Shown here: in pieces, positions 1 through 40,728 of the stretch
How positions within the stretch are numbered: position 1 is the stretch's first letter
Layout of the letters: each line of letters starts with the position of its first letter
NCBI GenBank assembly: GCA_950097015.1
Contig: CATNEN010000011.1
Span: 2,790,001-2,854,000 of the forward strand
Length of the DNA: 64,000 nt
Reading direction: 5' to 3'
DNA from: Macrostomum hystrix
Taxonomy: Eukaryota; Animalia; Platyhelminthes
Translations under genes and position numbers: made by a program
Notes under the pieces: model-generated
The model's database searches: none
What the model was told of the DNA's origin: nothing
Seen by the model: only the letters and a program-made list of their open reading frames with translations

Positions 1-904
1 CATCCCAACACTTCCTGTTGCAGCAGAGTCATCCGTCTCCTGTGAAGGGTAACACCTTGCTGTGCTGCCGCGGCGCGGTCTCCCATCTGCTGCTGAATGT
101 CAGGCTGCGCGAGGTGCTGCTTCACTGCTGCTTTCAGACAACTGCCAGCGGCCTCAGCTGCATTCAGGAAAGGCGATTACGGTGGAAGATGTCGTACTTG
201 ATGGTCATCTCGCAATCCTGGGACATTCGCATGCGCTCGGGCATTATCGCAAAGGAGAACAAATGCGCTGTCCACCAGTTGGTCTATTTCCATCAGCATT
301 CCCTGAAACTGTGCATTTGTGAATCCACCTTCGGCAAGCTGGTAATGGACCAGCCCAAGGTCTGGCGAAATGGCGAGGCACAAGGTCAAATTCTGCCCCC
401 TCTGGCCAGCAACAATGTGCACGGCGGGCTCGCCCATCCTTGCCCAGCCTTGCGTTCTGGCGGTCCATACATTGAAGCCAAACTCATCCAGAAAGATGCA
501 GTGCTGTCCGTTGCCTTCGTTTAGCATCCAACTGGCATGCTGGAAGCGAGCTTCTTTGGTGATGTTCGAATTCCAATCGTCCGTGACAGTACGATGCTTT
601 TTTAACGTAATTAGCTGCTTGTCCAGTGCACGACTGATAAGTTCAGGCCAATGGTCTCCAATGCAAGCCACCGCACTGAAAGACCACCGCGCATAATTTG
701 CAGAGTGCAGGTGGGATTTTGTTCAACTATTGTTATCAGGTGCTCCGTCATTTCCTCATTCAGATGTTTCTTTCGATTGCCACCCTTGGCCAGACTATGA
801 TCTCTTCCGTCTCTTTCAAATACCTCAATGATGGACCTGGTGATTCTTGGTTTAATCTGCAATTGTCTCGCCAGGAGCCTCCAGTCTTCACCTCGGACAT
901 ACGA
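1..904 (-). pseudogene. Tc1/IS630-mariner-type DDE transposase pseudogene, main part (continues off the left edge of the window)
   Basis: Minus strand reads YVRGEDWRLLARQLQIK...KGGNRKK...NPTCTLQ (HTH region), then after a frameshift ISRALDKQLITLKK...IFLDEFGF...LCDNARAH...LPP*SPFLNAAE. The DDE triad is recognisable; the Tyr of LPPYSPxLNPIE is mutated to TAA at 177-179. Confidence 0.9.
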
Positions 905-1932
905 TGAAGAGTTTTGCGTGTTGATCAGACACACGAAACTCCCACTTCTAGACAATGGGGAACAATTGCCTAGGAATTTATAACAGTCACGTGACACTTA
1001 CTGCAATTGCTTCTTCTTCCTTAAGTAGTTCGTAGTCTTCTGGGTCCTTGAAATCCGGTAGTTCTTCTTCTTCTGGTCGACCGTGAGGTTTCGAGTCTGT
1101 GTTTCTTGAGTCTTGGTAGTCTTGTCTTCTTTTGTCTTCCTGGCAGCTGCTTGAGTTTGTCTGTTGGCCAATAAATGACGAGAGCGAATCAGATTACTTT
1201 TCGGTTTCCTCGAGCTCGGAATTCACAATAGAAACGTGCGCCCTAGTGAACAATTGAAATCTTTCTTGTATATCTCTAGTAGGTCCTCCTGAAGGGCGTC
1301 TTCTTCGTTACCTCCGAAAGATAACGGATAACTCAAATCAAATCAATCAATAATCCTCTAGGAATGTATCCTAGGAAACAAGGAGGCCTTTCTCAAATGT
1401 ATCGACGATATGTGGCTCTCGTAAACTTAGTTCAATTCAACAACTATTGCTAGCAATAAATTACTCTGTCTAGTAAAGCGCTTACCACTTGTCTTTCCCT
1501 CAGAGATGAGTCCTCTTCTTCGTAAGGTGTTTTGAAGTCCGGTGGACCGCTCCGAGTCTGAATTTTTAGCTCGGATTTTCGCTTGTATTTATAGCAAAAC
1601 CTTGGGGAAAAACCGGTTCTACTACCGGGTGTTTACTTAGGTCACACATATTTGTTTAGTGAGTCATGATTGTGAGTTTTTACCATATTTGGAATACAGT
1701 GCAAACACAGACGCAGAACCCGATGAGTCATAATTGTTTGCTTTACCATATTTGGAATTCAAGCAAACACAGCTGTCAAGAACCGGTTCTCCGGTTTCAT
1801 GTCACATGACTGTTTCTAAAAATAGCGTATGACTCATTCCTAAAAATAGATTAAATGTTGTAGCTAAGAGTTCCTTATGGCATTACTTTAAGTAGCGCGT
1901 TAAGCAAAAAGCACATTTTACAACTCTCTACA
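905..1932 (-). repeat. 3' LTR (1028 bp)
   Basis: On the element strand it starts TGTAGAGAG and ends CTCTTCA. No differences from 11995-13022 were seen on visual comparison. Confidence 0.96.
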
Positions 1933-1947
1933 ATATCTCCCTTTTTT
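1933..1947 (-). other. Polypurine tract (PPT)
   Basis: AAAAAAGGGAGATAT on the minus strand directly precedes the TG of the 3' LTR. Confidence 0.85.
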
Positions 1948-2354
1948 ACGAAAAATTCGTCCCGAATTTATTGTTGAGAGGAAAAGAAAATAGCATAACA
2001 ATAATAAGATAACATCACGTATTGACAGTATCAGGACTAGGTGAAATGGATTTAGGTGCGTATGGGTAGACATTAAAACACAAATGGATTATATCAGTGG
2101 TGTAAGTAGTTGGTTAAATGTTCGTGAAAAGAAATTGACAATTTGAGAAGCGATGTGTAACCATTTTGGCATTGAAAATCCGTCACCATTGTATAACAAA
2201 GAGTATCTTGACATTTAGCGTATAGTGGGTTGTCAATAACATAAAATTTTGGATTGTATTGGTTAACATGAGGGAGTGATAAACATGGGAAGGTATATGC
2301 AATAATCAATGGTCTGTTTGTTTTACTAGTTGATGCAATCAAAAATTTTTTTAC

Positions 2355-2978
2355 TTATTCAAGGCTGAATTGATGCCGGATATATTCATGTATTTGTGCT
2401 TGAGTTTTGACCGTTAGTATGGCTATTGGCCAAAATAGTTTATATAGTTGCAGGTAGGCCGGATCTTCCGTATGCTCGAGGATATAGAGGTAGGCCTCTG
2501 TATCCGTGACAATTTCGGCTCGGCGTGTCAGATGCTCGCCTAGTTGAAGTAAATATTGCCGATGTTGTTGGCATCGTAGTGGTGTCGGCCACGTCTTTAT
2601 TGTCTCTCGTAATTCCTGAGGCTCCATGTCATGCACATTCATGAGCAGTAGGTCCACTGCTACCGGTGTTAATTGTACCGTAGCTAAGGGTTCCGCTCGC
2701 ATCCGTAGGAAACAATCGGGGCATTTGTCGATATTTCGACTGCCGAGTGCCTCTAGGCAGGTAAAGCAGCTCCAGTGACGGTTGTCACAAATTTGTATTT
2801 GCGGTTGATTACCGCAAATGAGACAGTGGACCCTGTCTCGACAGCAGATTGGGCAGGTGCGTATTGGGTTGCCAGTTTGCTTTGCGGCTGTCTCGCATTG
2901 TTGGCATGTCCCATGTCCGACTTCGCATATGGGCATTAGAGTGGTCTGCTCGTCTAAGCAAATAGGGCAGTCTGGCAT
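2355..2978 (-). CDS. Retroelement accessory protein 2: two tandem RING-HC (C3HC4, C-x3-H type) fingers + helical C-terminus, 207 aa
   Basis: CPIC-x10-CEVGH-GT-CQQC-x13-CPIC followed by CLIC-x8-CDNRH-WS-CFTC-x11-CPDC. ATG start; lies inside the element between pol and the PPT. Confidence 0.85.
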   Translation of the reverse strand: MPDCPICLDEQTTLMPICEVGHGTCQQCETAAKQTGNPIRTCPICCRDRVHCLICGNQPQIQICDNRHWSCFTCLEALGSRNIDKCPDCFLRMRAEPLATVQLTPVAVDLLLMNVHDMEPQELRETIKTWPTPLRCQQHRQYLLQLGEHLTRRAEIVTDTEAYLYILEHTEDPAYLQLYKLFWPIAILTVKTQAQIHEYIRHQFSLE

Positions 2979-2999
2979 TGTTGTCTGTGGGTGGTTTGT

Positions 3000-3650
3000 T
3001 TAATGGACTTCTTGATCGGAGTTGACATATTCATATGATTCGTGTGGTGGCAGTAGATACGATAAGTCTTCATTTCTTAAAATTAGTGTGGGTAAAATTG
3101 TACAGAAAATGGGACAGGGATGAAGATTCATGTCATCGACAAGATTAAACAGTTTTTGTGCAATATCATGTATGGACAATTGTCGAAGCTCAGGGCCGTA
3201 TTGCAATGAGTATCGTACAATGTTTTTACGTGTTTTGTGAGCAATTCGTGGTATAGGCCATGCTTTTAGAAGTTGAATTATCTTATTAGAGGAAAAAAGA
3301 GTATAGGTTAATGGATGAAGTTGGCAACCATAATTTGGTTTAATACGCGCAAATTTGTTATAGATTACTAATAGTGGGGTATTATTGCAAACAGGACATT
3401 GGAAAATGGCTCGATAGGCAAACTTCTTTATACATTGCGGACACATAAAATGTTGGTTTTGACAGTATTGTACAGTTCGCCATGAGTTACATATCATACA
3501 TTGGCGGAGATTTCCACGGCACAAGGGACAGTTTTTTAATGGTTTTTTGTAGTGTGCGAGGCTTAAGCAAGAACCGCAAACATGGTGTTTATTGACACAT
3601 ATACATGGTAGTTTACATGAGAATTCTTCAAGACAGACAGGACAGTCCAT
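3000..3650 (-). CDS. Retroelement accessory protein 1: two tandem RING-HC fingers + C-terminal domain, 216 aa from ATG at 3650
   Basis: CPVC...CVNKH-HV-CGSC...CPLC and CMIC-x8-CQNQH-FM-CPQC-x11-CPVC. The ATG is in a strong Kozak context (ACCATGG); the ORF-track start at 3755 is a GTG. Confidence 0.85.
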   Translation of the reverse strand: MDCPVCLEEFSCKLPCICVNKHHVCGSCLSLAHYKKPLKNCPLCRGNLRQCMICNSWRTVQYCQNQHFMCPQCIKKFAYRAIFQCPVCNNTPLLVIYNKFARIKPNYGCQLHPLTYTLFSSNKIIQLLKAWPIPRIAHKTRKNIVRYSLQYGPELRQLSIHDIAQKLFNLVDDMNLHPCPIFCTILPTLILRNEDLSYLLPPHESYEYVNSDQEVH

Positions 3651-3781
3651 GGTAGTGTTCGCGAAAATTGTGTGGGCGTTTGCAGAGAACAGAGGTTTTA
3701 GTCGCCTTTTACGACAAGCTTGAGAAGCTGTAGTGCTATTCTTAATCCCGGTCACTACACGGGTAACAATAAACGAGTAAT

Positions 3782-6700
3782 TTAACGCGGGCGTAAGTTA
3801 TACGTATGAGTATTTGGTGGTGTGTTTGTGGTTTGTGTCTCGGCATGTGCTGTTGCAATGTGCTTGTTTGTTGTTTTTGTGTGGTCTGGATTCTGTAACG
3901 TTGGAAGGAATGTAGTGTCGTTAGTGATGCGTTTTAAACGTTGAATGTGAACGTAGAACTGAGGTTGATGTGGATCCTGGATATTTGCAAGGCGTGCTGT
4001 TGTCGCGGATATCAGTCCTGTTACACGGAAAGGTCCTTTGTATTTGAAAGCATGCTTGTGCGTATGCTGTGCCGGGTAGTGTAGGTAGACGATATCTCCT
4101 ACTTGTAAGGTAGAAGCATGATTACTTGTTGTAGGTACGGTAGATTGGTTGTCGAGATTATGTTTTGCAATTTGCCATGCTAGGTGTAATTGAGAAGTGA
4201 ACTTTTGTAGCGTCGTCGGCGTGTCAACATATTGAGATGGCAGTAATTTCTGAACTAATAGATTCGGTGGTTGAAAGTCTCGAGAGAACATCAGAAAGAA
4301 TGGTGTGTTCTCTGTTGAGCGATGAACTGCGCTATTGTAGGCCATTGTCACGGATTGTATGTAAATAATCCAATCTTCAGGTTGTTTGTAAACAAAGTGT
4401 GTCAGCATTTCATGTAGATTTCTGTGAAATCTTTCGACGAGGTTTGCTTTTGGATTATATGTCGAAGTGAATATTTGTTGAATATTCAGTAGTTTGGCGG
4501 CCTGTTGAAATAATTGCGATGTGAACTGTGTACCATTGTCAGATGTTAGCGTCTTAGGAGTTCCGAATTTGCAGATAATTTCATTATAGAAGGCCATTGC
4601 AACTGTTGTCGCTGTGATGTCAGGTATCGGAATGGCAACGGCGAATTTCGAAAAAACATCCAAGGCTGTAAGAATGTAGTTGTAGTCGATAGAGTGTTGT
4701 CGAGCCGGTGGTAGTGGTCCGGTAATGTCAATTGACACTGTGTCCCATGTAGTTGTCTTCGGCACTGATTGGAATTCAGGTTTTTGTCGTCTTCCGATTT
4801 TTGTTGAAGCACATGAGTGACATTGTGTGCAGTACTTGCGAATGTCTAAATTTATTGTTGGCCAAAAATAGAACTGGGCGACTCTCTGGATTGTTTTCTT
4901 GGCGGATAAGTGTCCTGCTAATGGACTATCATGGAGTTCGTGTAGGATCGCTGAACGGAATGTGTATGGTAGGTACAGTCGCGGAATATTGTTGTACACC
5001 CAGTAGAGTGCGAGTTCTCTGAAAACTAGACTATTTTTGTGTTTTCGTAAGAATTGTTTTTCGATTTTTGTAAGTTCATTTTCCGTTTCTTCTGTATCTT
5101 CTTGTATGGCTTTGTAAAAGGAATCGTCTTGTTGTGCTTTCAACAAGTCTTTTATGGTTGGAATTGGATGAACTGCATTGATCTCGTATGTTCTGGACAG
5201 TGCATCAGCGGCTTTATTCATTGGCCCTGGTTTGTAAACCAGGTGAAAGTTGTAGTCCTGTATTTTGAGGACCATTCGGATGAGTCTATTGTTCGTCTGT
5301 CCTTTTGTTTTAACAACGTGAGTCAGCGGTGCATGATCTGTGCGAATGATAGTTGGCAGTGGTGATCCATAGATGTAGTAATGGAATTGTCGAAGAGCAA
5401 ACAGAACAGCTAGTAGTTCTCGTTCAGTGGCTGACCATTTTGTTTCGTTTGGTCTTAGCGCTCTGCTGATGTAAGCAATCGGTTTTTCTTTCTTTGGTTC
5501 CATTTCCTGAAGTAGTACGGCTCCTAATCCGCTTCCTGATGCGTCTGTTTCTATGATAAAAGGTTTGTGGAAGTTCGGGTGTTTGAGAAGAGCATCACTA
5601 GTTAGTTGTTGTTTGATTCTATCGAAACTTTCCTGTTGTTCCGCTTTCCAGTTGTCTTCTTTCCACTTTGGAATTTTTAGTAGTTCGTACAATGGTTTAG
5701 CCGTTTGTGCAAAGTTAGGTAGGAATTTTCGGAAATATTGTGCTAGTCCAAGGAATGACTGCAGTTTGGTAATTGACGTAGGTTTCGGGAACTTCTTGAC
5801 CTTGTCGACGTTATTTGGGTCAGGTGATATGCCTCGTGACGAGACGTGATGTCCAAGATATCGGACCGAATCTCTGCAGAATTTACATTTTGTTGGTTGC
5901 AGTTTTAGACCTTGTTGTCGGAGTAAGAAGAGAGCTTGTTCCATGACTTTTACTAGTTGTTCAAAGTTATTTCCAAAGGCAAGAATATCATCAACATAGT
6001 GAAGCAGATTTGTACATCCGGCTAGCATATAGGCTGTAAGACGGCTCATTGTTGCTGGTGAGTTGGAGATTCCCATTGGACTTCTTTGATACGCGAAAAC
6101 TTCTCCTTTGTAAGTTTTGAAGGCAGTGTATTGTTTTGATTCTTCTTCAAGTTCGATTTGCCAGAATCCATGTCGTAGGTCAAATACGGTGAAGAGTGTC
6201 GCCGTATTGAGTCGTGCTAGCAGTTCTGAGATTTTTGGTAGACTTTGTTGATCGGTGGGAATGTACTTATTTAGGACTCGGAAATCACAGACGAGTCGTC
6301 TTTCGTTTGTTTCTTTCTTTTCGACAAGAAGGCAAGGTGAAGAATAAGCTGAGACGGTACGTTTTATGATTCCTGCTTTAAGCATTTTTTCTATGATTTC
6401 ATCGAAGTGTTGCTGTAGGTGTTTAGCGACTGGATATGGTTTACATTGGATTGGTTCTTGATGAGGTAGCAGTTCAATTTTTTGCTTGATATCTCGAGCA
6501 CATCCGATGTCGTAATCGTGATGACAGAAGACGTCGTTATACTTCCACAATAGATCTTTAACTTGTGTTTTTTGTCCTTCAGTGATTGGACTTTGAGAAA
6601 GATCAATTTGTTGTAGGAATTTTTGTTTAGACATTTTTGTTGTTGTGTCTGGTTGGATGAGCATTACCGAAGCTTGTGTGTTGAGATGTCCCATGCATGT

Positions 6701-9700
6701 TCCTGCATAAATTTTTACTGGATGTTGATTTGGATTTATAATTTGTACTGGGATGTTTCTTTCCTTTGTGATAAGGACTAGAGCCGTTGGTATTAAAACT
6801 TCTTTTGTTGTGAGGATCTTCTTTCTTGGTTCAAATATCATAGCTTCTTCGACATCGTCATGATTGGCGAGATATGCTTTAACCCAACATGTACTTTCCG
6901 GCTGTATGAAGACATCTTGTTTAATATGTACTTTTGGTTGAAGGTGAACTTGGCTGACTAAAGGATGTTCCACATTGTCCAGTTTGAATGTTTGTTTGTT
7001 AAAATCAAATGTTAATGGTAGATTCATTTGCCGAAATGTGTCGATTCCAATAATAACATCTTGGCTTGGAAGATGGTCAATAACAAATGCTTGTACCAGA
7101 AGTTGCTTGTTTGCAAGTTTAAGTGATATATTCACTTGTCCTAGGATATTAAGTGCATGTCCTCCGGCTCCAGCGACAGCGATTGAAGAAGGTCGCATAT
7201 GAAGTTGCAATTTGTCGTAGAGTCTTTTTGTGATGACTGTGATTGAACTTCCTGAGTCGAGAAGTGCTTTACTGGGCATGTTGTTTATAAATACTTGAGC
7301 CATCGCTCTACCCATATTGGCTTGCAAGGTGCAAATGTAATTTGCTGGCCATTTTGGATCCGTTGGTAGAGGAGGAGATTTCGGCGGTGGTCTCGCTGTT
7401 CTGATTTCAATTTTTGGGTAAATATTTGATGCTTCTGGTTCTGGTGCTGTTGGCAATAATTGTTTTCTTTGATCTTGTAGTAGAGTTTCTTCAATTTTTT
7501 CGTTGAGTGTAGTAGTTTCTTGTTGTTTGTCAATTTGGAAAATCCGTTGTTTTGCTGGATAGGCTCGTGCTACACATCGTACTACTGTGATAAAGATCAT
7601 TAGTGCAAGGTGAATCCATACAATGCATGCACTGGAGAAGATGAATCCCTGATAGTAACTTCCTTTTCCTTGGAGTAAATCGAGAAAGCTATTCGACCAA
7701 AAGGATCCTATTGCGTTATGTATGATGAATCCTGTCGAAAAGGATTGTTCTTTGTCCTGTTGGTTGTGTTGGGTAAAGAGCTTTTTCATCATCTGTCGTT
7801 GGGCGATAAAAACTTGAAGAAAATCATTAATTGTCCATCCTGGTGTGATTTCGTCAAGTTTGATGTCACCAAATGGTTTATAGGTGGTCTTATTTATCTT
7901 GAGCTGTAGGTCCGATAGTTCGTATGTTTCGTCGATAATAGCTTGCATACCAGTGATGTTTGTAATGTGCCCAGTTGTTGAGACCTTGTGTAGTTTATTA
8001 TTAATGTTGAAATAGTTGACTGCGTCAGTGCAGGGTCTCGGGATTGCAGTTCCAACAATTATATTGTGCACAGTATCTAGAAATCCTTGAATTCGTTTCC
8101 CATTGTAGTAAGCTTCGATTCTGGGTTTATCGTAGCACGTAGTTGATGTGTTTGATGGCAAGATATTAAAATGATGCAGTGGCACACATTTGTAAATCAA
8201 CAGATGGCCAGAGATGGGGATAGCTAAAGCATCTTGAATCCCTGTGATTTTTCTGAATGTAGACGTTGGATTGACATAATAGTTTTGTCGTGCATAGTTA
8301 AGTGCAGTTTCGTGCATTCTACAAGTCAGTTGGATCAGTGATTTGTGCAAGTAGTTTAGTTCTTTATGTAGGTTATGTTCCATTGCTGCGAGTTTTGCCG
8401 CTAGTAGTCGTGCAGAAACCATTGATGGTCTTTGTAGTTCTCTCTTTTTCCGAGCTGTGTTGGTTCTTGTTGAATAAGTACCATTGACCAGTCTCATAAA
8501 GGTATCCTCATCCATATCACGTAATTCGAGCGGTATCTCTTGTTCAGACACTAGAAGTTTTTTAGAGTTCTCCTTGCAGTTAATTTGGAGATACTTGGCT
8601 TTTTTTGGAAAAGTTAGGGCAAAATCCGACGTACTCGCAAGGAAGGTATTTGACAGTAGACTTCCTTTTATTGTATGGTACTTCTGGAATTTACAATCAA
8701 TATTCGGTTCAACTTTCCATGCAACGAAGTACTGTCGTTGGTATTCTGTAATCTCATAGTATGGGCTGTGTCGATGTTCAATTTGCCATTTGTAATTTTG
8801 ATGATATGTTGGAGCCAGCGGTACTTGCCATACTGCTTCGTTCCAGAGTTTTGCTGTTTCGCAGAACCCTGTGTTGTACTTGCAATCTTCCATTGATAAT
8901 TGTAGAGATTCCATGTTTTCAAATGGATTGTGGTAAAACAAGACTTTCCGGATCAAGTAACTGTTTGTCGTGGTGTAACGTGGCCATATGTATTCGTTCC
9001 AATGGACATATCTACCGCTCGCACTGTTCTTGGTCCTGAAGAGTTGAGAGTTTCCAATTTTTTCATCGGCATGAAGTTCTCCATCTTTAGAAAATAATGT
9101 TTGGTTCCACTGGAGGCATTCTTCTTGTGTGACAGGCAGTGCTGTTTGCCAGAATCGGATGCGATTCCATTGGATGTACCAAACCTTTTCGAGTTCATGT
9201 TTATCTCGGAAACAGATAATACCATATTGTCTATGTTTCTTTGTGTTTGCTTTGTAGACATCGATCGTTAATGGAATAGGTTTTGTTTGATTAGTTTTAA
9301 AGTAACTGCACTTGATTTCCGTTGGTATTTTGTAGATGACTGGTTGGATGTTGGCATCAGTAGGACATATCATGGGCACTGAAGATGGTACAACTGTCGG
9401 GAGAAGTAACATCACGATGGCTGAAAACAACCATCTTATCAGTATGTGCCGTTTCTTTTTCTTCACTTTGGTTGGTGTTGTCGGTTTATTGGTGTTTATT
9501 GAGTATCGTTGGTCTTCTGTCTCTCCAATTGGTGGAGTAAGGCGCATAGAAAAGTGCCATGGGTTGTTGCATCCTGATGGTCTGGTTTGTTGGTTATACC
9601 AGGTTGGTTGTTTCATATTGAATGTTAATGGTGTATTGAGAGTTTGCAGTACGGTACTTGTAGTATCCGTTCTCATGTCGATCCACGTTGTTGGTTCATC

Positions 9701-11461
9701 ATAGATATGATCATCATCATTTTCCATCGACGTATTGTAGTCACTTTTAGTCTGAGAAGATCTATCGTGCTTCGAGTAGTATGATTCGGTATTCACTGCT
9801 TTATCGTGTCCATTCTGTCCTTCAGATGAATTGACATGGGTTATGTTTTCGTATTCGGGATCAGGTTTGTACTTGGGTGTCGAAGGCGGTGTCTCTGTCA
9901 AGTCGATGTCATCGACTAAAATTTGTAACATGCTGATGTTTTCTTCAGACGTGTTGTGTGAATTTTTCGCACTGTGTTCCTCATTATTCCTTTCTGTGGA
10001 TGTGGACAATTCATCTATGCCTTCTTTGTTTTGCAGAATTTTTGAAAGATCACTCATCGTTGGAATTTTGAATAATCCTTTAATTTGTTGTTGTAATTGT
10101 TTTCGTTCAATGTGTTGACAGGTGTTGAAGGCAACACTTTCTCTTGGCGAGGGAGTCGATAATTCTTCAAACAATGAACCCATTATGCAGCTACTGTCGT
10201 TGCTTATGTTGTCGTTCTGTATTTTCTGTGTTGACTCATTGTTGTAGTAAAAATTGTTTTCTTCTGTATCCTCAGTTTCCTTTTGTGGCATGGGCGGCTC
10301 TTTCGAATGGTCGCTTTCGATTATAGTAATATAGGCTGCACCATCGTTGTCCAGATGAAGGTCATTGATTTCTTGCTCCTTCTTTTGTTTCTCAAGTTCA
10401 TCAAGAACATTGACGGAAAAGTCTGGCATAAGATCTTCAATCTTGAACTTTGGTTCAATAGTTTGAGTGTATTCAGGCTCAATAGCTTGAGTGTATTGTC
10501 GACGGACTTGCGTTGGTTGTCTTGGAGGTGGAGGATTTCTTTGTTGACGATAAGGTACGATGGCATTAGATGGTCTACTATCTTGTTGTCGACTATTTGT
10601 CCAATTACGGTTTGAAAGCTGTCTTGGAGGACGAGTCCAATTGGTCTGTCTATTGTCATTGTATGAACGTGGGTTGCCACGTGATCTGCAGTCTCTAGCA
10701 TAATGACCGATCCTTCCACAGGTGTAACAAGTTGATGTGTGCAAGTATCTCTGTTGTGGTTGTGGATAGGAATATCTCTGCTGTTGTGGTACAATAGCAG
10801 AAGTTTGGTGTTGCTGCATGAGTTTGCTTAATTGTTCTGCTAGTTGTGTCGTGTCACTATTATGAGTAGTCATAAGAGGTGCGCTAGCTTCCCATTGCAT
10901 TCCACAACGGAGCAATTGTTCCTCTGTGTTAATAGTTTCTCTCAGCAGTCTATCTCGCAAAGTAGGCTGTGCGTTGTTAATCACATGAAGTATTAAACTT
11001 TGTTCCCGGTCTTCAAGACGTTGTCTTTCTCGTGCAGCTGATTCGGCAGGTCCTATAGGTTGAGCTCCTTGATCCAATGGTGGAGGCTGATGTAATGCTT
11101 TGATGATCTTACGGATGTCATCAACAAAGGTGAGAAAACTCTCAGTGGGACTCATTTTTCGATTATGAAGTTTATGAAGGAGTACCGATCTGTTTGTTCC
11201 ACACCGTGCGAATTGTGCTCTCAGTTGGGTAACTAGAGCTTGATAATCTTGTTGTACTGCAGCTGTCAATTTTCCATAGATTTCTCGAGCTGTTCCTTGT
11301 AACAGTGGAGGTAGGAGGAGTGCTTTCTCTGCATTCTGTAATCCATATTCGCGTGAGACCAAATCAAAGTGATCAATGAATGTGTTGAAATCTTTATCCA
11401 TTGTATACATTCCGACCGTTTCCTTAATGTCACGATGGACCTGATAGTTTCTTCGTGCCAT
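3782..11461 (-). CDS. Single Gag-Env-Pol polyprotein (~2559 aa from ATG 11461)
   Basis: Gag CCHC knuckle CYTCGRIGHYARDC (~10688-10729). Hydrophobic signal-like stretch (~9385-9450), RKKR (8441-8452), TM (~7585-7650). PR LLDSGS (~7250), RT YVDD (~5987-5998), RNase H TDAS (~5540). IN with HHCC (~4830-4940), D..D..E core and GPF motif (~4030). No stop or frameshift in between. Confidence 0.95.
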   Translation of the reverse strand: MARRNYQVHRDIKETVGMYTMDKDFNTFIDHFDLVSREYGLQNAEKALLLPPLLQGTAREIYGKLTAAVQQDYQALVTQLRAQFARCGTNRSVLLHKLHNRKMSPTESFLTFVDDIRKIIKALHQPPPLDQGAQPIGPAESAARERQRLEDREQSLILHVINNAQPTLRDRLLRETINTEEQLLRCGMQWEASAPLMTTHNSDTTQLAEQLSKLMQQHQTSAIVPQQQRYSYPQPQQRYLHTSTCYTCGRIGHYARDCRSRGNPRSYNDNRQTNWTRPPRQLSNRNWTNSRQQDSRPSNAIVPYRQQRNPPPPRQPTQVRRQYTQAIEPEYTQTIEPKFKIEDLMPDFSVNVLDELEKQKKEQEINDLHLDNDGAAYITIIESDHSKEPPMPQKETEDTEENNFYYNNESTQKIQNDNISNDSSCIMGSLFEELSTPSPRESVAFNTCQHIERKQLQQQIKGLFKIPTMSDLSKILQNKEGIDELSTSTERNNEEHSAKNSHNTSEENISMLQILVDDIDLTETPPSTPKYKPDPEYENITHVNSSEGQNGHDKAVNTESYYSKHDRSSQTKSDYNTSMENDDDHIYDEPTTWIDMRTDTTSTVLQTLNTPLTFNMKQPTWYNQQTRPSGCNNPWHFSMRLTPPIGETEDQRYSINTNKPTTPTKVKKKKRHILIRWLFSAIVMLLLPTVVPSSVPMICPTDANIQPVIYKIPTEIKCSYFKTNQTKPIPLTIDVYKANTKKHRQYGIICFRDKHELEKVWYIQWNRIRFWQTALPVTQEECLQWNQTLFSKDGELHADEKIGNSQLFRTKNSASGRYVHWNEYIWPRYTTTNSYLIRKVLFYHNPFENMESLQLSMEDCKYNTGFCETAKLWNEAVWQVPLAPTYHQNYKWQIEHRHSPYYEITEYQRQYFVAWKVEPNIDCKFQKYHTIKGSLLSNTFLASTSDFALTFPKKAKYLQINCKENSKKLLVSEQEIPLELRDMDEDTFMRLVNGTYSTRTNTARKKRELQRPSMVSARLLAAKLAAMEHNLHKELNYLHKSLIQLTCRMHETALNYARQNYYVNPTSTFRKITGIQDALAIPISGHLLIYKCVPLHHFNILPSNTSTTCYDKPRIEAYYNGKRIQGFLDTVHNIIVGTAIPRPCTDAVNYFNINNKLHKVSTTGHITNITGMQAIIDETYELSDLQLKINKTTYKPFGDIKLDEITPGWTINDFLQVFIAQRQMMKKLFTQHNQQDKEQSFSTGFIIHNAIGSFWSNSFLDLLQGKGSYYQGFIFSSACIVWIHLALMIFITVVRCVARAYPAKQRIFQIDKQQETTTLNEKIEETLLQDQRKQLLPTAPEPEASNIYPKIEIRTARPPPKSPPLPTDPKWPANYICTLQANMGRAMAQVFINNMPSKALLDSGSSITVITKRLYDKLQLHMRPSSIAVAGAGGHALNILGQVNISLKLANKQLLVQAFVIDHLPSQDVIIGIDTFRQMNLPLTFDFNKQTFKLDNVEHPLVSQVHLQPKVHIKQDVFIQPESTCWVKAYLANHDDVEEAMIFEPRKKILTTKEVLIPTALVLITKERNIPVQIINPNQHPVKIYAGTCMGHLNTQASVMLIQPDTTTKMSKQKFLQQIDLSQSPITEGQKTQVKDLLWKYNDVFCHHDYDIGCARDIKQKIELLPHQEPIQCKPYPVAKHLQQHFDEIIEKMLKAGIIKRTVSAYSSPCLLVEKKETNERRLVCDFRVLNKYIPTDQQSLPKISELLARLNTATLFTVFDLRHGFWQIELEEESKQYTAFKTYKGEVFAYQRSPMGISNSPATMSRLTAYMLAGCTNLLHYVDDILAFGNNFEQLVKVMEQALFLLRQQGLKLQPTKCKFCRDSVRYLGHHVSSRGISPDPNNVDKVKKFPKPTSITKLQSFLGLAQYFRKFLPNFAQTAKPLYELLKIPKWKEDNWKAEQQESFDRIKQQLTSDALLKHPNFHKPFIIETDASGSGLGAVLLQEMEPKKEKPIAYISRALRPNETKWSATERELLAVLFALRQFHYYIYGSPLPTIIRTDHAPLTHVVKTKGQTNNRLIRMVLKIQDYNFHLVYKPGPMNKAADALSRTYEINAVHPIPTIKDLLKAQQDDSFYKAIQEDTEETENELTKIEKQFLRKHKNSLVFRELALYWVYNNIPRLYLPYTFRSAILHELHDSPLAGHLSAKKTIQRVAQFYFWPTINLDIRKYCTQCHSCASTKIGRRQKPEFQSVPKTTTWDTVSIDITGPLPPARQHSIDYNYILTALDVFSKFAVAIPIPDITATTVAMAFYNEIICKFGTPKTLTSDNGTQFTSQLFQQAAKLLNIQQIFTSTYNPKANLVERFHRNLHEMLTHFVYKQPEDWIIYIQSVTMAYNSAVHRSTENTPFFLMFSRDFQPPNLLVQKLLPSQYVDTPTTLQKFTSQLHLAWQIAKHNLDNQSTVPTTSNHASTLQVGDIVYLHYPAQHTHKHAFKYKGPFRVTGLISATTARLANIQDPHQPQFYVHIQRLKRITNDTTFLPTLQNPDHTKTTNKHIATAHAETQTTNTPPNTHTYNLRPR
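7560..9465 (-). other. Envelope glycoprotein domain (class III fusion protein, herpesvirus gB/chuvirus G-like) embedded in the polyprotein
   Basis: Signal peptide, 12 ectodomain Cys, six N-X-S/T sequons, furin-type RKKR and a C-terminal TM. NPTSTFRKITGIQDALAIPISGHLLIYKC resembles the gB motif NPTxxxxxxxGxxxxAxxxGDxxxxxxC. Confidence 0.8.
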
Positions 11462-11975
11462 ATTCGCAACTGGGAACGGAAATAATTCAAGTTCTGGATC
11501 GATGTTCAAGGGTTCGTCCAGATTGACTTCTCTGACAAGATTTAGTGTGAATAAAAAGTGTGTGTGTGTGCGTGTGCGTGTGTATCAGCAAATTGAAAAT
11601 GGTTTACACAGAGGAATTATTTACTCAGGACAAGGGAGAAAAATTTATACAAAGCAGGGAACGTATGCCGCTTTTAACGCTGAAAAGGGGTTATTGAAAT
11701 GTGAGCCGGTGAGTTCAGTCGCGCGATTCCCAGGTGTGCAAACAATAGAGCGAAGTGACGCGTGTGGCTTATGTGCAAACAATATCCGGTAGGGACAGCA
11801 AAATTTTTCAGAGGGATGACGCAACAAAATTTTTATGAAACGGTGGATTATTTTAAATCAAAAGCAAAATTAATAAGTTGCAAAAATTTTTTTTCCTTTT
11901 TTTTTTATGTTAAAACAATTCGAAAGGGGTACCGCAAAAAATGTTTTGTATCTCGGCCTGGGCTTGATTGCAGGG

Positions 11976-11992
11976 CCTGGGCGAGATCACCA
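11976..11992 (-). other. Primer-binding site, probably tRNA-Val
   Basis: TGGTGATCTCGCCCAGG begins 2 nt after the 5' LTR. It is complementary to ...CCUGGGCGAGAUCACCA, which matches the tRNA-Val 3' end as I recall it from yeast (CCUGGGCGAAAUCACCA) with one mismatch. Confidence 0.75.
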
Positions 11993-11994
11993 GT

Positions 11995-13022
11995 TGAAGA
12001 GTTTTGCGTGTTGATCAGACACACGAAACTCCCACTTCTAGACAATGGGGAACAATTGCCTAGGAATTTATAACAGTCACGTGACACTTACTGCAATTGC
12101 TTCTTCTTCCTTAAGTAGTTCGTAGTCTTCTGGGTCCTTGAAATCCGGTAGTTCTTCTTCTTCTGGTCGACCGTGAGGTTTCGAGTCTGTGTTTCTTGAG
12201 TCTTGGTAGTCTTGTCTTCTTTTGTCTTCCTGGCAGCTGCTTGAGTTTGTCTGTTGGCCAATAAATGACGAGAGCGAATCAGATTACTTTTCGGTTTCCT
12301 CGAGCTCGGAATTCACAATAGAAACGTGCGCCCTAGTGAACAATTGAAATCTTTCTTGTATATCTCTAGTAGGTCCTCCTGAAGGGCGTCTTCTTCGTTA
12401 CCTCCGAAAGATAACGGATAACTCAAATCAAATCAATCAATAATCCTCTAGGAATGTATCCTAGGAAACAAGGAGGCCTTTCTCAAATGTATCGACGATA
12501 TGTGGCTCTCGTAAACTTAGTTCAATTCAACAACTATTGCTAGCAATAAATTACTCTGTCTAGTAAAGCGCTTACCACTTGTCTTTCCCTCAGAGATGAG
12601 TCCTCTTCTTCGTAAGGTGTTTTGAAGTCCGGTGGACCGCTCCGAGTCTGAATTTTTAGCTCGGATTTTCGCTTGTATTTATAGCAAAACCTTGGGGAAA
12701 AACCGGTTCTACTACCGGGTGTTTACTTAGGTCACACATATTTGTTTAGTGAGTCATGATTGTGAGTTTTTACCATATTTGGAATACAGTGCAAACACAG
12801 ACGCAGAACCCGATGAGTCATAATTGTTTGCTTTACCATATTTGGAATTCAAGCAAACACAGCTGTCAAGAACCGGTTCTCCGGTTTCATGTCACATGAC
12901 TGTTTCTAAAAATAGCGTATGACTCATTCCTAAAAATAGATTAAATGTTGTAGCTAAGAGTTCCTTATGGCATTACTTTAAGTAGCGCGTTAAGCAAAAA
13001 GCACATTTTACAACTCTCTACA
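11995..13022 (-). repeat. 5' LTR (1028 bp)
   Basis: Direct repeat of 905-1932, followed by the PBS on the element strand. Confidence 0.96.
12645..12940 (-). promoter_or_regulatory. LTR U3 promoter/enhancer: TATA box and clustered MEF2, CArG and AP-1 motifs
   Basis: TATAAATA (minus, 12676-12683) with TCAG about 30 nt downstream. CTAAAAATAG x2 (12906, 12930), CCATATTTGG x2 (12773, 12836), TGA(G/C)TCA x3 (12750, 12814, 12920). Confidence 0.55.
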
Positions 13023-13370
13023 ACGATTGCAGATACGATTCTCTGTCGGTCCTTCTCCGATACTGTAGTGTAGTGCCAGCGCAGCATAGTGGTTGATGAC
13101 CTCTGTTCTCTTGTACATGCCAGATTTGCGCTGTAGGCAAAGGCTAACTATGAATCCTCGATTTCGACCACAGACAACAGAATGAAACAACTCCAATCGA
13201 TTTCCCCGGAGAGTATGCTTAAAACACATTGAATTGAGGGAAATCAATTGGACTTAAGGGAATTCATTTGGACTTATCTATGTTCGAGAAGGCTGGTTGG
13301 GCCCTCGCTTTCGACTTCAGCTAATGGGGAAATCAATTGGCTTTTTTGCGAAATCAATTGACAAAAGGTA
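13023..13370 (-). mobile_element. 5' end of the Tc1-like element interrupted by the LTR element (N-terminal codons + terminal region)
   Basis: ATG at 13087 gives MLRWHYTTVSEKDRQRIVSA, which joins YVRGEDW at 904. Three GAAATCAATTG direct repeats (~13240, 13330, 13350) and a TA at ~13370 suggest an IR/DR terminus. Confidence 0.7.
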
Positions 13371-14585: not shown

Positions 14586-16528
14586 CGTCAGCAACAGCAG
14601 CAGACGCGGCAGCGCGAGGCTGTCGACGAACTGCGTCGGCTACGTCAGCAGCAGCTCGAATCTAAGCTGGCCGCCGAAGCGGACCGCCTGCAGCGTCAGC
14701 GCGAGGAGGCCAACAGGCTGCGCGCGGAGAAGGCTGCACAGGCCGAGGCTCGCAGGCGGCGAGTGCTGGAGACCGCGCAGCGCCTTCACGAGGAGCGACT
14801 GAAACGGCTGCTACTGCCAAAGACTCTGGCGCCATCTGCTCCTGCTGCTGCTGCCGCTGCCGCATCTTCTGCTGTTAAACGACCTCCGCCGATGTCCGTT
14901 AAGAAAGCGATTACGTCAACTATTGTCAAGATTGCTGTAGAACGTCAGCTCTCGCCATCGTCTCCAATTTACGAGCCGGAGCCGGTTGCGGTTGAACAGT
15001 CGACTGAGGCTCGCATGATGCACTTTAAAGTTTGCGATAGCGGCGGTAGTCTGGTAAGCTTAGTCTGTTAGGGCTCTCAAACATTTTAACATATATATAT
15101 ATATACTGCCCCTCCCTCGGGCCCCATTTCATTATTTCCTTATCCTCATATATTATTCCACTTCTCCTTATGCCACATTCCGCCCCTCAGGTTCCATTCC
15201 GCCCCTCCCTCAGGTCCCATTCCTCCACTCCACCAGGTCCCGTTCCTCCCCTTCCTCAGGTCCCGTTCCTCCCATCAGGTCCCATTCCGCGCATCCCTCA
15301 GGTCCCATTCCGCCCCTCCACTAGGTCCCGTTCCTCCCCTTCCTCAGGTCCCGTTCCTCCCATCAGGTCCCATTCCGCGCATCCCTCAGGTCCCATTCCA
15401 CCCCTCCATCAGGTCCCATTCCGTCCCTCCATCAGGTCCCATTCCGCCCCTCCATCAGGTCCCATTCCGCCCCTCCATCAGGTCCCATTCCTCCCCTCCC
15501 TCAGGTCCCATTCCGCGCATCCCTCAGGTCCCATTCCGCCCCTCCATCAGGTCCCATTCCGCCCCTCCATCAGGTCCGATTCCTCCCCTCCATCAGGTCC
15601 CATTCCGCGCATCCCTCAGGTCCCATTCCGCGCATCCCTCAGGTCCCATTCCGCCCCTCCATCAGGTCCCATTCCGTCCCTCCATCAGGTCCCATTCCGT
15701 CCCTCCATCAGGTCCCATTCCGCCCATCCCTCAGGTCCCATTCCGCCCCTCCATCAGGTCCCATTCCTCCCCTCCATCAGGTCCCATTCCGCCTCTAATT
15801 ATTTAACTGCGAGTATTTAATTAAAACATTCACTTTGTAATCCCCAAACAAATCAGGTACTGCTTCGTTGCGACTTAAAAGAGCTAGACCAAAAGCAGCA
15901 GCAGCAACAGCGGCATCAATCCGGGCACAATGATCTACAAGCTCCAATAGATGAATGGTTGCCTGATTCAGCCAACCCACTGCCGCCTTTATTTAATCTA
16001 ACAGCTACTGAGTCAACTAACGCTATGGAATTGGAGGAAACCAATGCTGAGACTGAATCAACTGAAGCACATGCAGTCCCGGTTGAAGAAGCTGACGAGC
16101 AACAACAAGACGATTACGGAGATGCCACAGACGACACCGACGAACAGTTTAGTCGAGCAGAATTCGCCGACGATGCCCTAGCTGACTGGGTGACCGAGGA
16201 TAATTTGTACAGGCTTTTTTCTAAACAAAAATTCGACGGCCCGGCCTGGTGGCGAGTGTTTCGGCCTGTGGATGTCGGCATTCGCTTAGCCGAATGTCTT
16301 TACTGCGCATTTGAAGATGTCGACTATGCGAAATTAGATCATGCAGCCCATGACGACTGCGATAATAATAATCTGAGCTGCTCCGGCGAAGGTGACTGTC
16401 GGCCAGACGGCGACTCGGACGCCTCCGCTAGACGACGCCGTCGATGGCTAGAGCGGCGAGGCAGTTCCGCTCTCTGGCGAACTCCGCCGAGCGATGTTGT
16501 TAAACGATTGCTCAATGATGCTCGATAA
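14586..16528 (+). CDS. Uncharacterised coiled-coil/acidic protein (exons 14586-15053, 15857-16528; start not identified)
   Basis: ttacag acceptor; E/R/Q/A-rich heptads; ctg|gtaag donor joined in phase 0 to atcag|gtactg; acidic second exon ending at a stop. Confidence 0.6.
15170..15795 (+). repeat. 23-bp minisatellite (caggtcccattccgcccctccat)n, intronic
   Basis: Direct reading of the tandem units. Confidence 0.95.
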
Positions 16529-28483: not shown

Positions 28484-31400
28484 TCAAAAGTCTCTAAAGT
28501 ACTCCTGGCCCATTGCGCTAGAGGATGGTACCTTCTTCCAGTCCTGCTCTTCGTAATTATCGTAGCAAGCAGTGTCACCGGCGTGCTGCACCTGCGGCAC
28601 AATGGGCGGCGTCAGCTTCCTATTGTAGACGTCATCCCAGTCGAGGCCGCGAAACCAGCGATGCGACCGGACGTCCTCGGCACCGCTCTTCATGTTGCCC
28701 AATCGTTTCGTGCGATCCAGGACTAGCAGCTTGCGGATTAAATCGCGTGCCTAGAACAGTGCGGGTTTGTGGAGCCAGCGATACTACTTACAGTAGATTT
28801 GTATCTCAACGTACCTCAGTCTAAAATCTCAATGGATCTCACACTCTATTCTCAATGGATCTTCTCACTCTCTAATCTCAATAGATCTCACTCTCTAACC
28901 TCAATAGATCTCACTCTCTAATCTCAATGGATCTCACTCTCTAATCTCAATAGATCTCACTCTCTAACCTCAATAGATCTCACTCTCTAATCTCAATGGA
29001 TCTCACTCTCTAATCTCAATAGATCTCACTCTCTAATCTCAATAGATCTCACTCTCTAATCTCAATAGATCTCACTCTCTAATCTCAATAGATCTCACTC
29101 TCTAACCTCAATAGATCTCACTCTCTAATCTCAATGGATCTCACTCTCTAATCTCAATGTATCTCACTCTCTAATCTCAATAGATCTCAATATCTAATCT
29201 CAATGGATCTCACTCTCTAATCTCAATAGATCTCACTCTCTAATCTCAATAGATCTCACTCTCTTATCTCAATGTATCTCACTCTCCTATCTCAATGTAT
29301 CTCACTCTCAAATCTCAATAGATCTCCCTCTCTTATCTCAATGTATCTCACTCTCCTATCTCAATGTATCTCACTCTCTAATCTCAATGTATCTCACTCT
29401 CTTATCTCAATGTATCTCACTCTCTAATATCAATGGATCTCAGTATCTAATCTCAATGGATCTCACTCTCCTATCTCAATGTATCTCACTCTCTAATCTC
29501 AATAGATCTCATTCTCTTATCTCAATGGATCTCACTCTCTAATCTCAATAGATCTCATTCTCTTATCTCAATGTATCTCACTCTCTAATCTCAATAGATC
29601 TCACTCTCTAACCTCAATAGATCTCACTCTCTAATCTCAATGGATCTCACTCTCTAATCTCAATAGATCTCACTCTCTAACCTCAATAGATCTCACTCTC
29701 TAATCTCAATAGATCTCACTCTCTAATCTCAATAGATCTCACTCTCTAACCTCAATAGATCTCACTCTCTAATCTCAATGGATCTCACTCTCTAATCTCA
29801 ATGTATCTCACTCTCTAATCTCAATAGATCTCAATATCTAATCTCAATGGATCTCACTCTCTAATCTCAATAGATCTCACTCTCTAATCTCAATGGATCT
29901 CAGTATCTAATATCAATGGATCTCAGTATCTAATCTCAATGGATCTCAGTATCTAATCTCAATGCATCTCACTCTCTAATCTCAATAGATCTCACTCTCT
30001 AATCTCAATAGATCTCACTCTCTAATCTCAATGGATCTCACACTCTTATCTCAATGTATCTCACTCTCTAATCTCAATGTATCTCACTCTCTTATCTCAA
30101 TGTATCTCACTCTCTAATCTCAATGGATCTCACTCTCTAATCTCAATGGATCTCACTCTCCTATCTCAATGTATCTCACTCTCTAATCTCAATAGATCTC
30201 ACTCTCTTATCTCAATGTATCTCACTCTCCTATCTCAATGTATCTCACTCTCAAATCTCAATAGATCTCCCTCTCTTATCTCAATGTATCTCACTCTCCT
30301 ATCTCAATGTATCTCACTCTCTAATCTCAATGTATCTCACTCTCTTATCTCAATGTATCTCACTCTCTAATCTCAATGGATCTCAGTATCTAATCTCAAT
30401 GGATCTCACTCTCTAATCTCAATGTATCTCACTCTCTAATCTCAATGTATCTCACTCTCTAATCTCTATGTATCTCACTCTCCTATCTCAATGTATCTCA
30501 CTCTCTAATCTCAATAGATCTCACTCTCTAATCTCAATAGATCTCACTCTCTAATCTCAATGGATCTCACTCTCTAATCTCAATAGATCTCATTCTCTTA
30601 TCTCAATGTATCTCACTCTCTAATCTCAATATATCTCACTCTCTAATCTCAATAGATCTCAATATCTAATCTCAATGGATCTCACTCTCTAATCTCAATG
30701 GATCTCACTCTCTAATCTCAATAGATCTCATTCTCTTATCCCAATGTATCTCACTCTCTAATCTCAATAGATCTCACTCTCTAATCTCAATAGATCTCAA
30801 TATCTAATCTCAATGGATCTCATTCTCTAATCTCAATGGATCTCACTCTCTTATCTCAATGTATCTCACTCTTTAATCTCAATAGATCTCACTCTCTAAT
30901 CTCAATAGATCTCAATATCTAATCTCAATGGATCTCATTCTCTAATCTCAATGGATCTCACTCTCTTATCTCAATGTATCTCACTCTCTAATCTCAATAG
31001 ATCTCACTCTCTAATCTCAATAGATCTCAATATCTAATCTCAATGGATCTCACTCTCTAATCTCAATAGATCTCAATATCTAATCTCAATGTATCTCACT
31101 CTCTAATCTCAATGTATCTCACTCTCTAATCTCAATGTATCTCACTCTCTAATCTCAATAGATCTCACTCTCTTATCTCAATGGATCTCACTCTCTTATC
31201 TCAATGGATCTCACTCTCTAATCTCAATGTATCTCACTCTCTAATCTCAATAGATCTCACTCTCTTATCTCAATGGATCTCACTCTCTTATCTCAATGGA
31301 TCTCACTCTCTTATCTCAATGGATCTCACTCTCTTATCTCAATGGATCTCACTCTCTAATCTCAATGTATCTCACTCTCTAATCTCAATGGATCTCACTC

Positions 31401-40400: not shown

Positions 40401-40443
40401 GCACAGAGGAAGCCAGTGTCTCTGTAACAACACCCTCAGCCAT
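28484..40443 (-). CDS. PRKX: cAMP-dependent protein kinase catalytic subunit, PRKX type, 356 aa (exons 39822-40443, 31730-31911, 28484-28750)
   Basis: [54 protein letters not shown]. Splice phases 1 and 0 are consistent (622+182+267=1071 nt). Confidence 0.9.
28825..31585 (+). repeat. 23-bp minisatellite (tctcaatagatctcactctctaa)n filling PRKX intron 2
   Basis: Tandem units. Confidence 0.97.
31960..34195 (+). repeat. 23-bp minisatellite (cacattttcactctggtgtccat)n in PRKX intron 1
   Basis: Tandem units, diverging to an ...ctacttccat/ctccattccat variant after ~33500. Confidence 0.97.
35353..35561. mobile_element. ~209-bp hAT-type MITE nested in the 3' UTR of the hAT element
   Basis: Ends TAGAG...CTCTA; flanking gccaagac / gtcaagac (7/8) look like an 8-bp TSD; internal gggatc/gggatt repeats. 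Confidence 0.55.
35586..37997 (-). CDS. hAT transposase, 803 aa, intact
   Basis: N-terminal BED-like finger (CTVC...H...H), SIDES, STDG, CSLH, TRW and AVERVFS dimerisation motif; K/E/A-rich coiled-coil tail. Confidence 0.92.
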   Translation of the reverse strand: MSLSKPRATAFRHEWLQRSIDGRVLSEWLQPDRSDELLGFCTVCKKSFHLGTSGFGAVTAHAQGKKHKSRLPVMNETGIAHFFPTQGSKPSFTAMKKADAEVLMAELRLGIHFIEHNIAYNTADHSGVYPAMFHDSKIAQDMKCHRTKLCYLVNHALAPVMRDEMIQDLNSGCGLFSLSIDESSDGARKHMAVVISFVSSKKGRLCTTALKTVEVSDCSAAALKEEVLKILDEFNIPIRNCVSISTDGPAVMVGKFNGFQKIMHDFASHLVSIGPCSLHIVSNAVRRACEAFDGNVEDFADEVFSYFQTSKRWTRYNKVQSLLQVAQHRMLRRVETRWVQLLPVVNRLIEQYDSLEEFFVKNPSLIEQKTKKTKEIAEHLKSTHTLLNLQFLAAVLPHLDQFEKAFQTEEPCVHLLHGEVRNLFRQTLSFFLNPAHIQENNRHLRNLSLEGKYFLSNEAIFIGEAAKETLKKGLSDTQQKLFFLRVRTFYRELALYLQEHLPLSNPVLRSLQFLDPQYPMKVGLAAATTSLAACNLAKQMEYTPDSVSKIDSEWRCFLVDQQVVALAKDNDVVTFWLRVSALELGGQKKYGTLTRLALGALTIQPGNAAVERVFSELSDLLTKKRNKLGELSIDACLFVRHYIRQSGLVGEEPTTCENFPLTDVYVQSAGKARSVYMEFLQQQRDADKAKKDARIAAKQLEEQLAAEIEVNKKKMELEAAEKKLAAEREIIEAEKRAASAMLLEYQKKMRTLEEREAKALHDDAKLLKRKLKTQDELAAEALKKAAKMICKSLENRTMGRTSN
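38925..39420 (+). repeat. ~26-bp minisatellite (ggacattggttctctgctgctggggg)n
   Basis: Tandem units with variable G-run. Confidence 0.95.
39421..39800 (-). repeat. 75-bp tandem array of tRNA-like units (3 near-identical + ~2 diverged)
   Basis: Units start at 39421, 39496 and 39571. The minus strand has A-box-like TGGCTTAGTCAGCGG and B-box GGAGTTCGAATCTC. Confidence 0.75.
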
Positions 40444-40728
40444 GGGGTCTGTGCTGCTTGATCAAGTCTCCAAAATTGTTGAATGAAAGATTTGCTTTAA
40501 CAAATGATCTCAAACTGAGGCCTGAAAAGGACGTTAACAAAGTTTTTAAGTGAATGATTAAATTAAGGGAATAAAAAACTTACAGCCTTTAATATAAAAT
40601 AAATTAACCTAATTCATTGCTTGGGGAGTAAAAACAGATAGGCTTTTTGTGAAATAAAAGTTTTTTAGAAACAAACTGTCTTTTCAATACTATCTGAGCT
40701 TTCCTACATCAAAAGCTAAGCAATGAAA

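Follow-up and report, generated by a model that had tools for sequence, protein, structure and literature searches.

Within a 64,000-nt stretch of the genome of the flatworm Macrostomum hystrix (contig CATNEN010000011.1, positions 2,790,001–2,854,000; hereafter the window, in whose own positions all coordinates are given), the minus strand carried a complete long terminal repeat (LTR) retrotransposon (13022-905). Its single reading frame encoded an envelope protein (Env) between Gag and the protease (PR), followed by reverse transcriptase (RT), RNase H (RH) and integrase (IN). Env (9463-7556, 636 aa, in frame within the polyprotein) very probably adopts the class III, glycoprotein B (gB)-type fold, judging by profile and model comparisons. 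We hypothesize that it is a working fusogen made from the polyprotein, letting enveloped particles fuse with nearby cells, probably those of the same animal, a reading that we hold to be fairly likely. The env-bearing stretch, which is part of this element, had been noticed in an earlier reading of the letters alone (the sequence-only reading), whose ends for it (7560/9465) were out of frame.

Elements of this kind are known. GAG-ENV-POL Ty3/gypsy errantiviruses with a gB-type Env were described from Platyhelminthes, Bryozoa and Nematoda, including trimer models, fusion loops and furin sites that vary, in the main text of Chary and Hayashi (2026, PMC13524379), where their entry mechanism is stated to be unknown. 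With an intact GAG, a gB-type ENV and a Ty3/gypsy POL in that order, the element falls within the operational class of that text and adds a member to the published flatworm elements. Gene order, Ty3/gypsy Pol, Env domains I–V, hydrophobic loops, an optional furin site and flanking signal and transmembrane (TM) segments are common to them. The surprise at a gB-like env that the sequence-only reading implied was overstated, since the kind has been surveyed across animals in the same paper; its remark that such Envs occur in invertebrate LTR elements, Tas included, agreed with the accessible text of PMC9094657. Beyond the main text of PMC13524379 are the enrichment of late-domain-like motifs in the Env tail and a spliced RING-type accessory transcript. 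That main text makes no mention of splicing, accessory, RING, polyprotein or signal peptidase, nor of late domains, the endosomal sorting complexes required for transport (ESCRT) or budding, although no literature search was aimed at late domains. The kind is known and its working mechanism is not, and an intact, transcribed copy offers a handle on partner-free gB-type fusion. Residing probably in a tractable, regenerating flatworm, this copy bears on how class III fusogens arose and on the membrane sorting of a Gag-Env-Pol protein, and its tail motifs give a concrete, testable budding route.

Predicted fold, fusion loops and furin-type site of Env

A homolog search over 1.84 billion representatives yielded 84 Env homologs; word-index searches returned just one and two proteins. 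Env matched the Pfam family PF24664 with E 8e-7, its 27.8 bits just exceeding the cut-off of 27. Alignment A1 was built from the ectodomain of the window's Env plus 47 of those 84 matches (mostly shorter ones); its profile gave 46 matches in PDB, all of them herpesvirus gB (best E 2e-17), and aligned Env to residues 406–629 of Epstein–Barr virus (EBV) gB. A single-sequence PDB search gave nothing useful (one match, E 0.34). With the AlphaFold2 model of the ectodomain (predicted local distance difference test (pLDDT) 76.5, predicted template modelling score (pTM) 0.50), Foldseek found post-fusion gB, the best being that of Kaposi's sarcoma-associated herpesvirus (KSHV; E 3.5e-22, TM-score 0.54), with 112 of 433 matches at E ≤0.001. 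VIA aligned the model with gB over 410 residues (Z 12.3, root-mean-square deviation (rmsd) 5.7) and with domain IV of pseudorabies virus gB over 163 residues (Z 11.5, rmsd 3.2). A model of the N-terminal half, based on 33 rows, reached pLDDT 86.6 and pTM 0.76; in ESM Atlas, this half had no usable match. Compared with 48,161 chains without Foldseek, this half ranked gB first (Z 10.2, 214 residues, rmsd 5.9), followed by Chandipura G (Z 7.0), Bourbon GP (6.1), Thogoto GP (5.5), rabies G (5.1) and gp64 (4.7); these lower fusogens stood among pleckstrin homology (PH) domains, only gB rows exceeding Z 8 and the rest being middling.

The model also contained a long beta hairpin in a PH-like domain, as in gB, vesiculovirus G, thogotovirus GP and gp64, and a long central helix with a domain IV crown bearing conserved Cys, both traits of class III fusogens. 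A three-copy prediction of model residues 318–545, with the alignment unused and the fold uncertain, scored 0.03 against a mark of 0.32. Pfam, the A1 profile, Foldseek, VIA and the N-terminal-half search agreed on the class III, herpes-gB-type Env of the sequence-only reading. A predicted class I or class II fold, which would have spoken against that assignment, did not appear: the monomer matched gB, and neither class was among the best 50 rows of the fold searches. The label of a chuvirus-G type fared less well. PF24664 covers Monjiviricetes glycoproteins (nyami-, xinmo-, chu- and rhabdo-like), and the best 50 rows of the viral fold search were nyami-, rhabdo-like, entomopox, herpes and chu-like glycoproteins at 9–15% identity, with the first chu-labelled proteins at ranks 19 and 23, after the other four and among many similar scores. 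Because the viral matches were mixed, class III is firm, whereas a chuvirus type is not singled out.

With the gB of EBV, KSHV and herpes simplex virus 1, Env had in common the predicted fold, the domain order, the positions of fusion loop 1 and the furin site, the NPT motif and the Cys pattern of domains III–IV. Unlike them, it lies inside a polyprotein, at 10–17% identity to gB. Its domains I–II were shorter than in herpes gB (214 residues aligned over gB 138–456), which suggests one PH domain fewer than in gB.

All peptides quoted in the sequence-only reading were recovered in the frame 9463-7556 (SARLLAAKL...YLH at 8416-8345, NPTSTFRKITG at 8272-8240 and SGHLLIYKC at 8212-8186), as were the six sequons, the 12 ectodomain Cys and the C-terminal TM; the 636 aa contained 14 Cys, the other two lying in or just after the TM. 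RKKR, the only RX[KR]R within Env, was followed by the long helix in the model and faced the EBV gB furin site RRRRR in the profile alignment, in keeping with the furin site claimed. Of the proposed NPT...GD...C motif, NPT and C were present and GD was absent, the stretch reading NPT...SGH...C. The tip of loop 1 lay at env 97–98 in both models, and in A1 the I97 column faced EBV gB residue 112. This maps loop 1 within about two residues of 112–113, which with 193–196 form the EBV gB fusion loops, the furin site being at 428–432 (accessible text of PMC12859058). The claim of intact fusion loops stood for loop 1, which took the gB position; loop 2 was outside every gB alignment, with a fitting place in the model.

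As bare motifs, the aromatic windows, the furin motif and the sequons were within chance. Among 5,000 ectodomain shuffles, 44% had at least two 12-residue windows of five aromatics, 11% an RX[KR]R and 41% at least six sequons, and the ectodomain has a third, equally aromatic window that belongs to neither loop. Judged by conservation and position in the homologs, the features exceed chance, as the Cys, the NPT..R..C core and the RX[KR]R show (below). An artefact or chance reading was rejected.

Conservation and layout across homologs

Each of the 12 ectodomain Cys was kept in 96–100% of the 56–75 homologs covering it. In the NPT..R..C core (72–73 homologs), P399, T400, R404 and C426 were kept in 98%, 90%, 100% and 100%, the exception to this 90–100% range being Asn (47%). 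As many as 50 of 68 homologs had an RX[KR]R in the corresponding region, and the loop 2 columns 152, 155 and 160 were aromatic in 73, 60 and 61%. The 38-aa insertion of the window's Env was filled in 3 of the 68 homologs covering both sides. In the homolog rows listed, the first Cys came after a hydrophobic stretch.

In the sister family P0109, identity was 107/141 in Env domains III–IV, 179/221 in RT and 24/76 in the tail linker; Env is thus conserved like an enzyme, which argues for selection. The furin site differed in its letters (RRRR in P0109, RQSR in P0002), loop 1 was identical at 11 of 15 positions in both P0109 and P0001, and both loops were aromatic in these two sisters. Synonymous and replacement changes in env (7 vs 6) were uninformative; they come from 46 variant places listed within the long frame, a count that omitted places outside this frame and two beside an indel.

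Gag lay in frame upstream in 30 of the 37 homologs with room for it, Pol in frame downstream in 22 of 30, and Gag, Env and Pol occurred together in 12 of 84. By these counts, the in-frame fusion of Env is a family trait. Three related families, all but the window's labelled Macrostomum lignano, had a common layout at 32–66% identity with an RT support of 100/99. In the RT tree (34 rows, with BEL/Pao, copia and retrovirus references not included), the element grouped with M. lignano-labelled elements with support of 100/98 and 100/99. Among named relatives, the nearest were the M. lignano proteins ALD16272/ALD16273 and PAA64473 (66–67% identical) and the PAA86625 family (32% identical), all with Env and Pol in one frame; they are separate families, annotated merely as polyprotein or hypothetical protein, and the accessible text of PMC4604429 does not mention these deposited polyproteins. 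Directly before the Env signal of one homolog of the 84 (P0004, residue 200) stood DVESNPGP, presumably a 2A-like motif, which would offer an alternative means of separating Gag and Env. Three further rows (P0009, P0074 and P0025) had two or more protease-like domains, one of which lay upstream of env.

Among published elements, Platyhelminthes_Rhabditophora_Mlig_errantivirus_2, a 16-copy M. lignano element (PMC13524379), had an identical 12-mer and 2-nt spacer at the primer-binding site (Supplementary file 1, row 1445) and differed in LTR-to-LTR spacing (9,727 vs 11,090 here), the comparison covering primer-binding site and spacing. No Mlig names were counted in the structure table of that paper, where the first two Rhabditophora rows shown are Prostheceraeus. 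Atlas virus of Ancylostoma ceylanicum is also a single Gag/Pol/Env polyprotein with identical LTRs; it is, however, a belpaovirus with a C-terminal class II Env that was solved and assayed (accessible text of PMC9094657), whereas the Env here is known from sequence and model. The chuvirus-like envs of mosquito BEL/Pao elements have a different carrier, which is Ty3/gypsy here. Sacco et al. (2022) reportedly may already describe such a single frame in nematode elements.

Proposed route of Env and its alternatives

The polyprotein would probably be threaded into the endoplasmic reticulum (ER), from which signal peptidase, furin and the protease of the element would likely release Env by cleavage, with a likely signal-peptidase site near 9380. 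Based on charge and hydrophobicity, Gag would be cytosolic and the ectodomain luminal, the TM would stop transfer, and tail and Pol would return to the cytosol, so that Pol may start out membrane-tethered through Env; net charges of +7 ahead of the signal and +4 behind the TM fit a polyprotein crossing the ER membrane twice. With its predicted gB-like domains I–V, two hydrophobic loops and central helix, Env would, going by gB biology, trimerise, be glycosylated, be cut at RKKR and fuse membranes by loop insertion and fold-back. Motif enrichment suggests that the PTAP and YPxL-like motifs of the tail could recruit ESCRT for budding, and, if Drosophila errantiviruses are a guide, passage between cells or from soma to germline may keep env selected.

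In retroviruses, the late-domain motifs PTAP, PPxY and YPxL recruit ESCRT. Any of these three motif types was present in 10 of 22 homolog tails (2.9 expected), in 7 of the 19 left once the three Macrostomum-clade rows were set aside (2.4 expected) and in 8 of 23 tails of a separate set (2.7 expected), five near-copies having been excluded ahead of the counts. P[TS]AP occurred in 4 of 22 and 4 of 23 tails (0.26 and 0.22 expected), and PSAP and PTAP ranked top among 24 same-letter 4-mers in the homolog tails. In the Gag-Env linker, the three motifs were found in 1, 2 and 1 of 31; in env-less controls, they were found in 0 of 9 pre-protease stretches (9 usable of 16). These results hint that Env tail motifs recruit budding machinery. 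The tails of all three Macrostomum-clade families had late-domain-like motifs (P0109 704–721; P0002 1564–1593), despite an identity of only about 30% in the linker. We tentatively extend this to an Env that organises assembly, with the polyprotein passing twice through the membrane, Pol as cargo of the Env tail, ESCRT late domains on the tail instead of Gag, and a gB-type fusogen that, without gH/gL, drives budding as well as entry for an active endogenous virus of a laboratory flatworm; this wider picture is possible, but doubtful as a whole.

Several observations weigh against a working fusogen with a budding tail. In the ectodomain model, 124 of 577 residues, mostly in domain V and the stem, had pLDDT <50, and the ESM Atlas score of 0.96 is weak, as recognition was low (1487). 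The loop 1 stretch was weak alone (independent E 0.15–0.9) and shifted by 1–2 residues between A1 and A2; the gB alignments did not cover loop 2, which was in the expected order. Cys at env 125, 157, 158 and 168, present in about two thirds of the homologs, are missing here, and the loss of four Cys around loop 2 makes this loop atypical. Herpes gB requires gH/gL and receptor-binding partners (discussion of PMC13524379), and no partner of either kind was recognised in the element. The tails are proline-rich (8.7% vs 5.7%), and YPKI also fits the generic YxxPhi, which was not enriched in tails. Since the tail test was chosen after the motifs had been noticed, and its rows are related with kinship ignored, the enrichment is a lead. 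Finally, a pyrimidine-AG at 9421, a possible splice acceptor 9 nt before Met 9412, makes a separate env mRNA possible.

The dependence of herpesvirus gB on partners, the loop 2 lacking its conserved Cys, the gained 38-aa insertion and the far less aromatic loop regions of P0002 would suit a gB-fold Env that no longer fuses alone, serving instead to anchor Gag and Pol to membranes or vesicles, or depending on a host or element partner. We regard such an Env as unlikely, given that both loops are still aromatic in P0109 and P0001, that a furin-type site is kept in different letters and that the whole 12-Cys ectodomain is conserved. The acceptor at 9421 would serve an Env translated chiefly from a spliced mRNA of its own, like that of Drosophila gypsy, with the in-frame fusion serving only to reach Pol, and splicing from the LTR leader to a gene further downstream does occur in the element. 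A start at Met 9412 would, however, keep only about 11 signal residues, P0001, a close homolog, lacks a Met in its signal, and families retain the in-frame fusion on either side of Env, so that this route seems quite improbable. Contigs from eight runs (X1–X8) of two studies covered env; they reveal presence, not absence, strand, level or a single transcript, and a joint to the env start was found in none of the eight runs.

The Pfam name of PF24664, Monjiviricetes fusion proteins, and the lead of negative-strand virus G proteins in the viral fold search would be expected of a recent, functionless capture of Env by this one element from a chuvirus or another negative-strand RNA virus. Identity to those viral proteins was nevertheless low, many of the 84 homologs lie in retroelement polyproteins, and the layout is common to the three related families. 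A recent chuvirus capture was rejected on these grounds, and we assign the whole scenario very little probability. A working fusogen made from the polyprotein is the reading that we prefer.

The element, its transcripts and its surroundings

Table 1. Features of the retrotransposon and its Env in window coordinates.
Feature	Position	Strand	Remarks
5' LTR	11995..13022	-	1,028 nt, TG...CA; 0 mismatches to other LTR
3' LTR	905..1932	-	1,028 nt; identical to 5' LTR
Target-site duplication, 4 bp, ACGA	901..904 + 13023-13026		from sequence
Primer-binding site	11981..11992	-	2 nt from LTR; 12-mer and spacer as in Mlig_errantivirus_2
Polypurine tract	1933..1947	-	from sequence
Gag-Env-PR-RT-RH-IN single reading frame	3782..11461	-	2,559 aa, no internal stop
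Gag CCHC zinc knuckle	10685..10732	-	PF00098 E 1.7e-6
Internal hydrophobic signal (predicted) after KKKKRH	9380..9445	-	net charge +7 before, 0 after
Env ectodomain, 577 aa	7649..9379	-	predicted gB-like class III fold, 12 Cys, 6 sequons
Fusion loop 1 candidate VWYIQWNRIRFW	9149..9184	-	tip of long beta hairpin (DSSP, both models)
Fusion loop 2 candidate YVHWNEYIWPRY	8975..9010	-	loop between strands, pLDDT about 89-92
Aromatic-rich insertion, 38 aa	8735..8848	-	pLDDT 55-71
RKKR furin-type site	8441..8452	-	low-confidence loop ahead of central helix
Central helix (domain III), 47 residues, H323-369 in model	8273..8413	-	then NPT..R motif
Transmembrane stop-transfer segment (predicted)	7580..7648	-	net charge 0 before, +4 after
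PTAP (7453-7442) and YPKI (7420-7409)	7409..7453	-	predicted cytosolic tail between TM and protease
Aspartic protease	7013..7309	-	PF13975, PF00077
Reverse transcriptase (YVDD)	5843..6322	-	PF00078 E 3.6e-28
RNase H	5252..5650	-	PF17919, PF17917
Integrase zinc-binding and core domains	4451..4969	-	PF17921, PF00665
Accessory Cys-rich ORF 1, 216 aa	3000..3650	-	no Pfam match
Accessory RING-type ORF 2, 207 aa	2355..2978	-	RING Pfam matches below cut-off, best E 5e-4
GT-AG intron, 9,107 nt, LTR leader to ORF 2	2985..12091	-	joint in 4/8 runs, one study; GTAAGT donor, CAG acceptor
GT-AG intron, 325 nt, inside LTR	12251..12575	-	joint in 6/8 runs, both studies

The element had structural traits of Metaviridae (Ty3/gypsy), namely LTRs, primer-binding site, polypurine tract, target-site duplication, PR-RT-RH-IN order and a CCHC Gag; apart from env in mid-frame, its order was that of Ty3/gypsy. 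A BEL/Pao identity was rejected based on the domain set and the single CCHC. The identical LTRs and the target-site duplication mark the element as intact and recently inserted. No tRNA gene that would name the primer was present in the window. The start ATG at 11461 was the sole ATG after the splice donor 12091. Judging by the sequences on both sides (window 1-904 on the minus strand and beyond 13026), the element appears to have inserted into a damaged gene for a DDE transposase of the IS630/Tc1-like type (PF13358, E 2e-9). LTR contigs of run X6 extended into the same transposase flank.

The canonical GT-AG joints from the LTR point to transcription. From these joints and a loose end in X2, which we take to be a template-switch adapter, we infer that runs X2, X3 and X5–X8 were cDNA. 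The two accessory open reading frames (ORFs) lay between Pol and the 3' LTR and were paralogs (30% identical over 164 aa, E 1e-19); ORF 2 started at the first ATG after the splice acceptor 2985.

Contigs also reported on other copies. A non-canonical 4,908-nt skip (window 4061-8968, 3-nt microhomology, length a multiple of three) was found in four of the eight runs and likely represents an internally deleted copy. In X3, a 1,437-nt skip (window 2022-3458) removed most of the accessory ORFs; element copies without the accessory cassette exist. Another X3 contig had a net 5-nt insertion near 9330, early in env, which broke the frame in that copy, and an X2 contig was missing 36 nt in the protease (window 7111-7146). 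Contigs of the LTR (11995-13022) with other flanks had a summed depth far above that of the interior in X1 and X4, which likely reflects numerous solo LTRs or related families, although copy number cannot be read from depth.

Elsewhere in the window, a hAT transposase-like frame of 816 aa (35586-38036, minus strand, PF05699) was found, together with host exons for a protein kinase domain (39802-40461, minus strand) and for tandem PDZ domains with a weak PTB match (57068-57889, plus strand). Long tandem arrays occupied 28725-31700, 15050-15820 and 52000-55000, one array having a 23-nt period.

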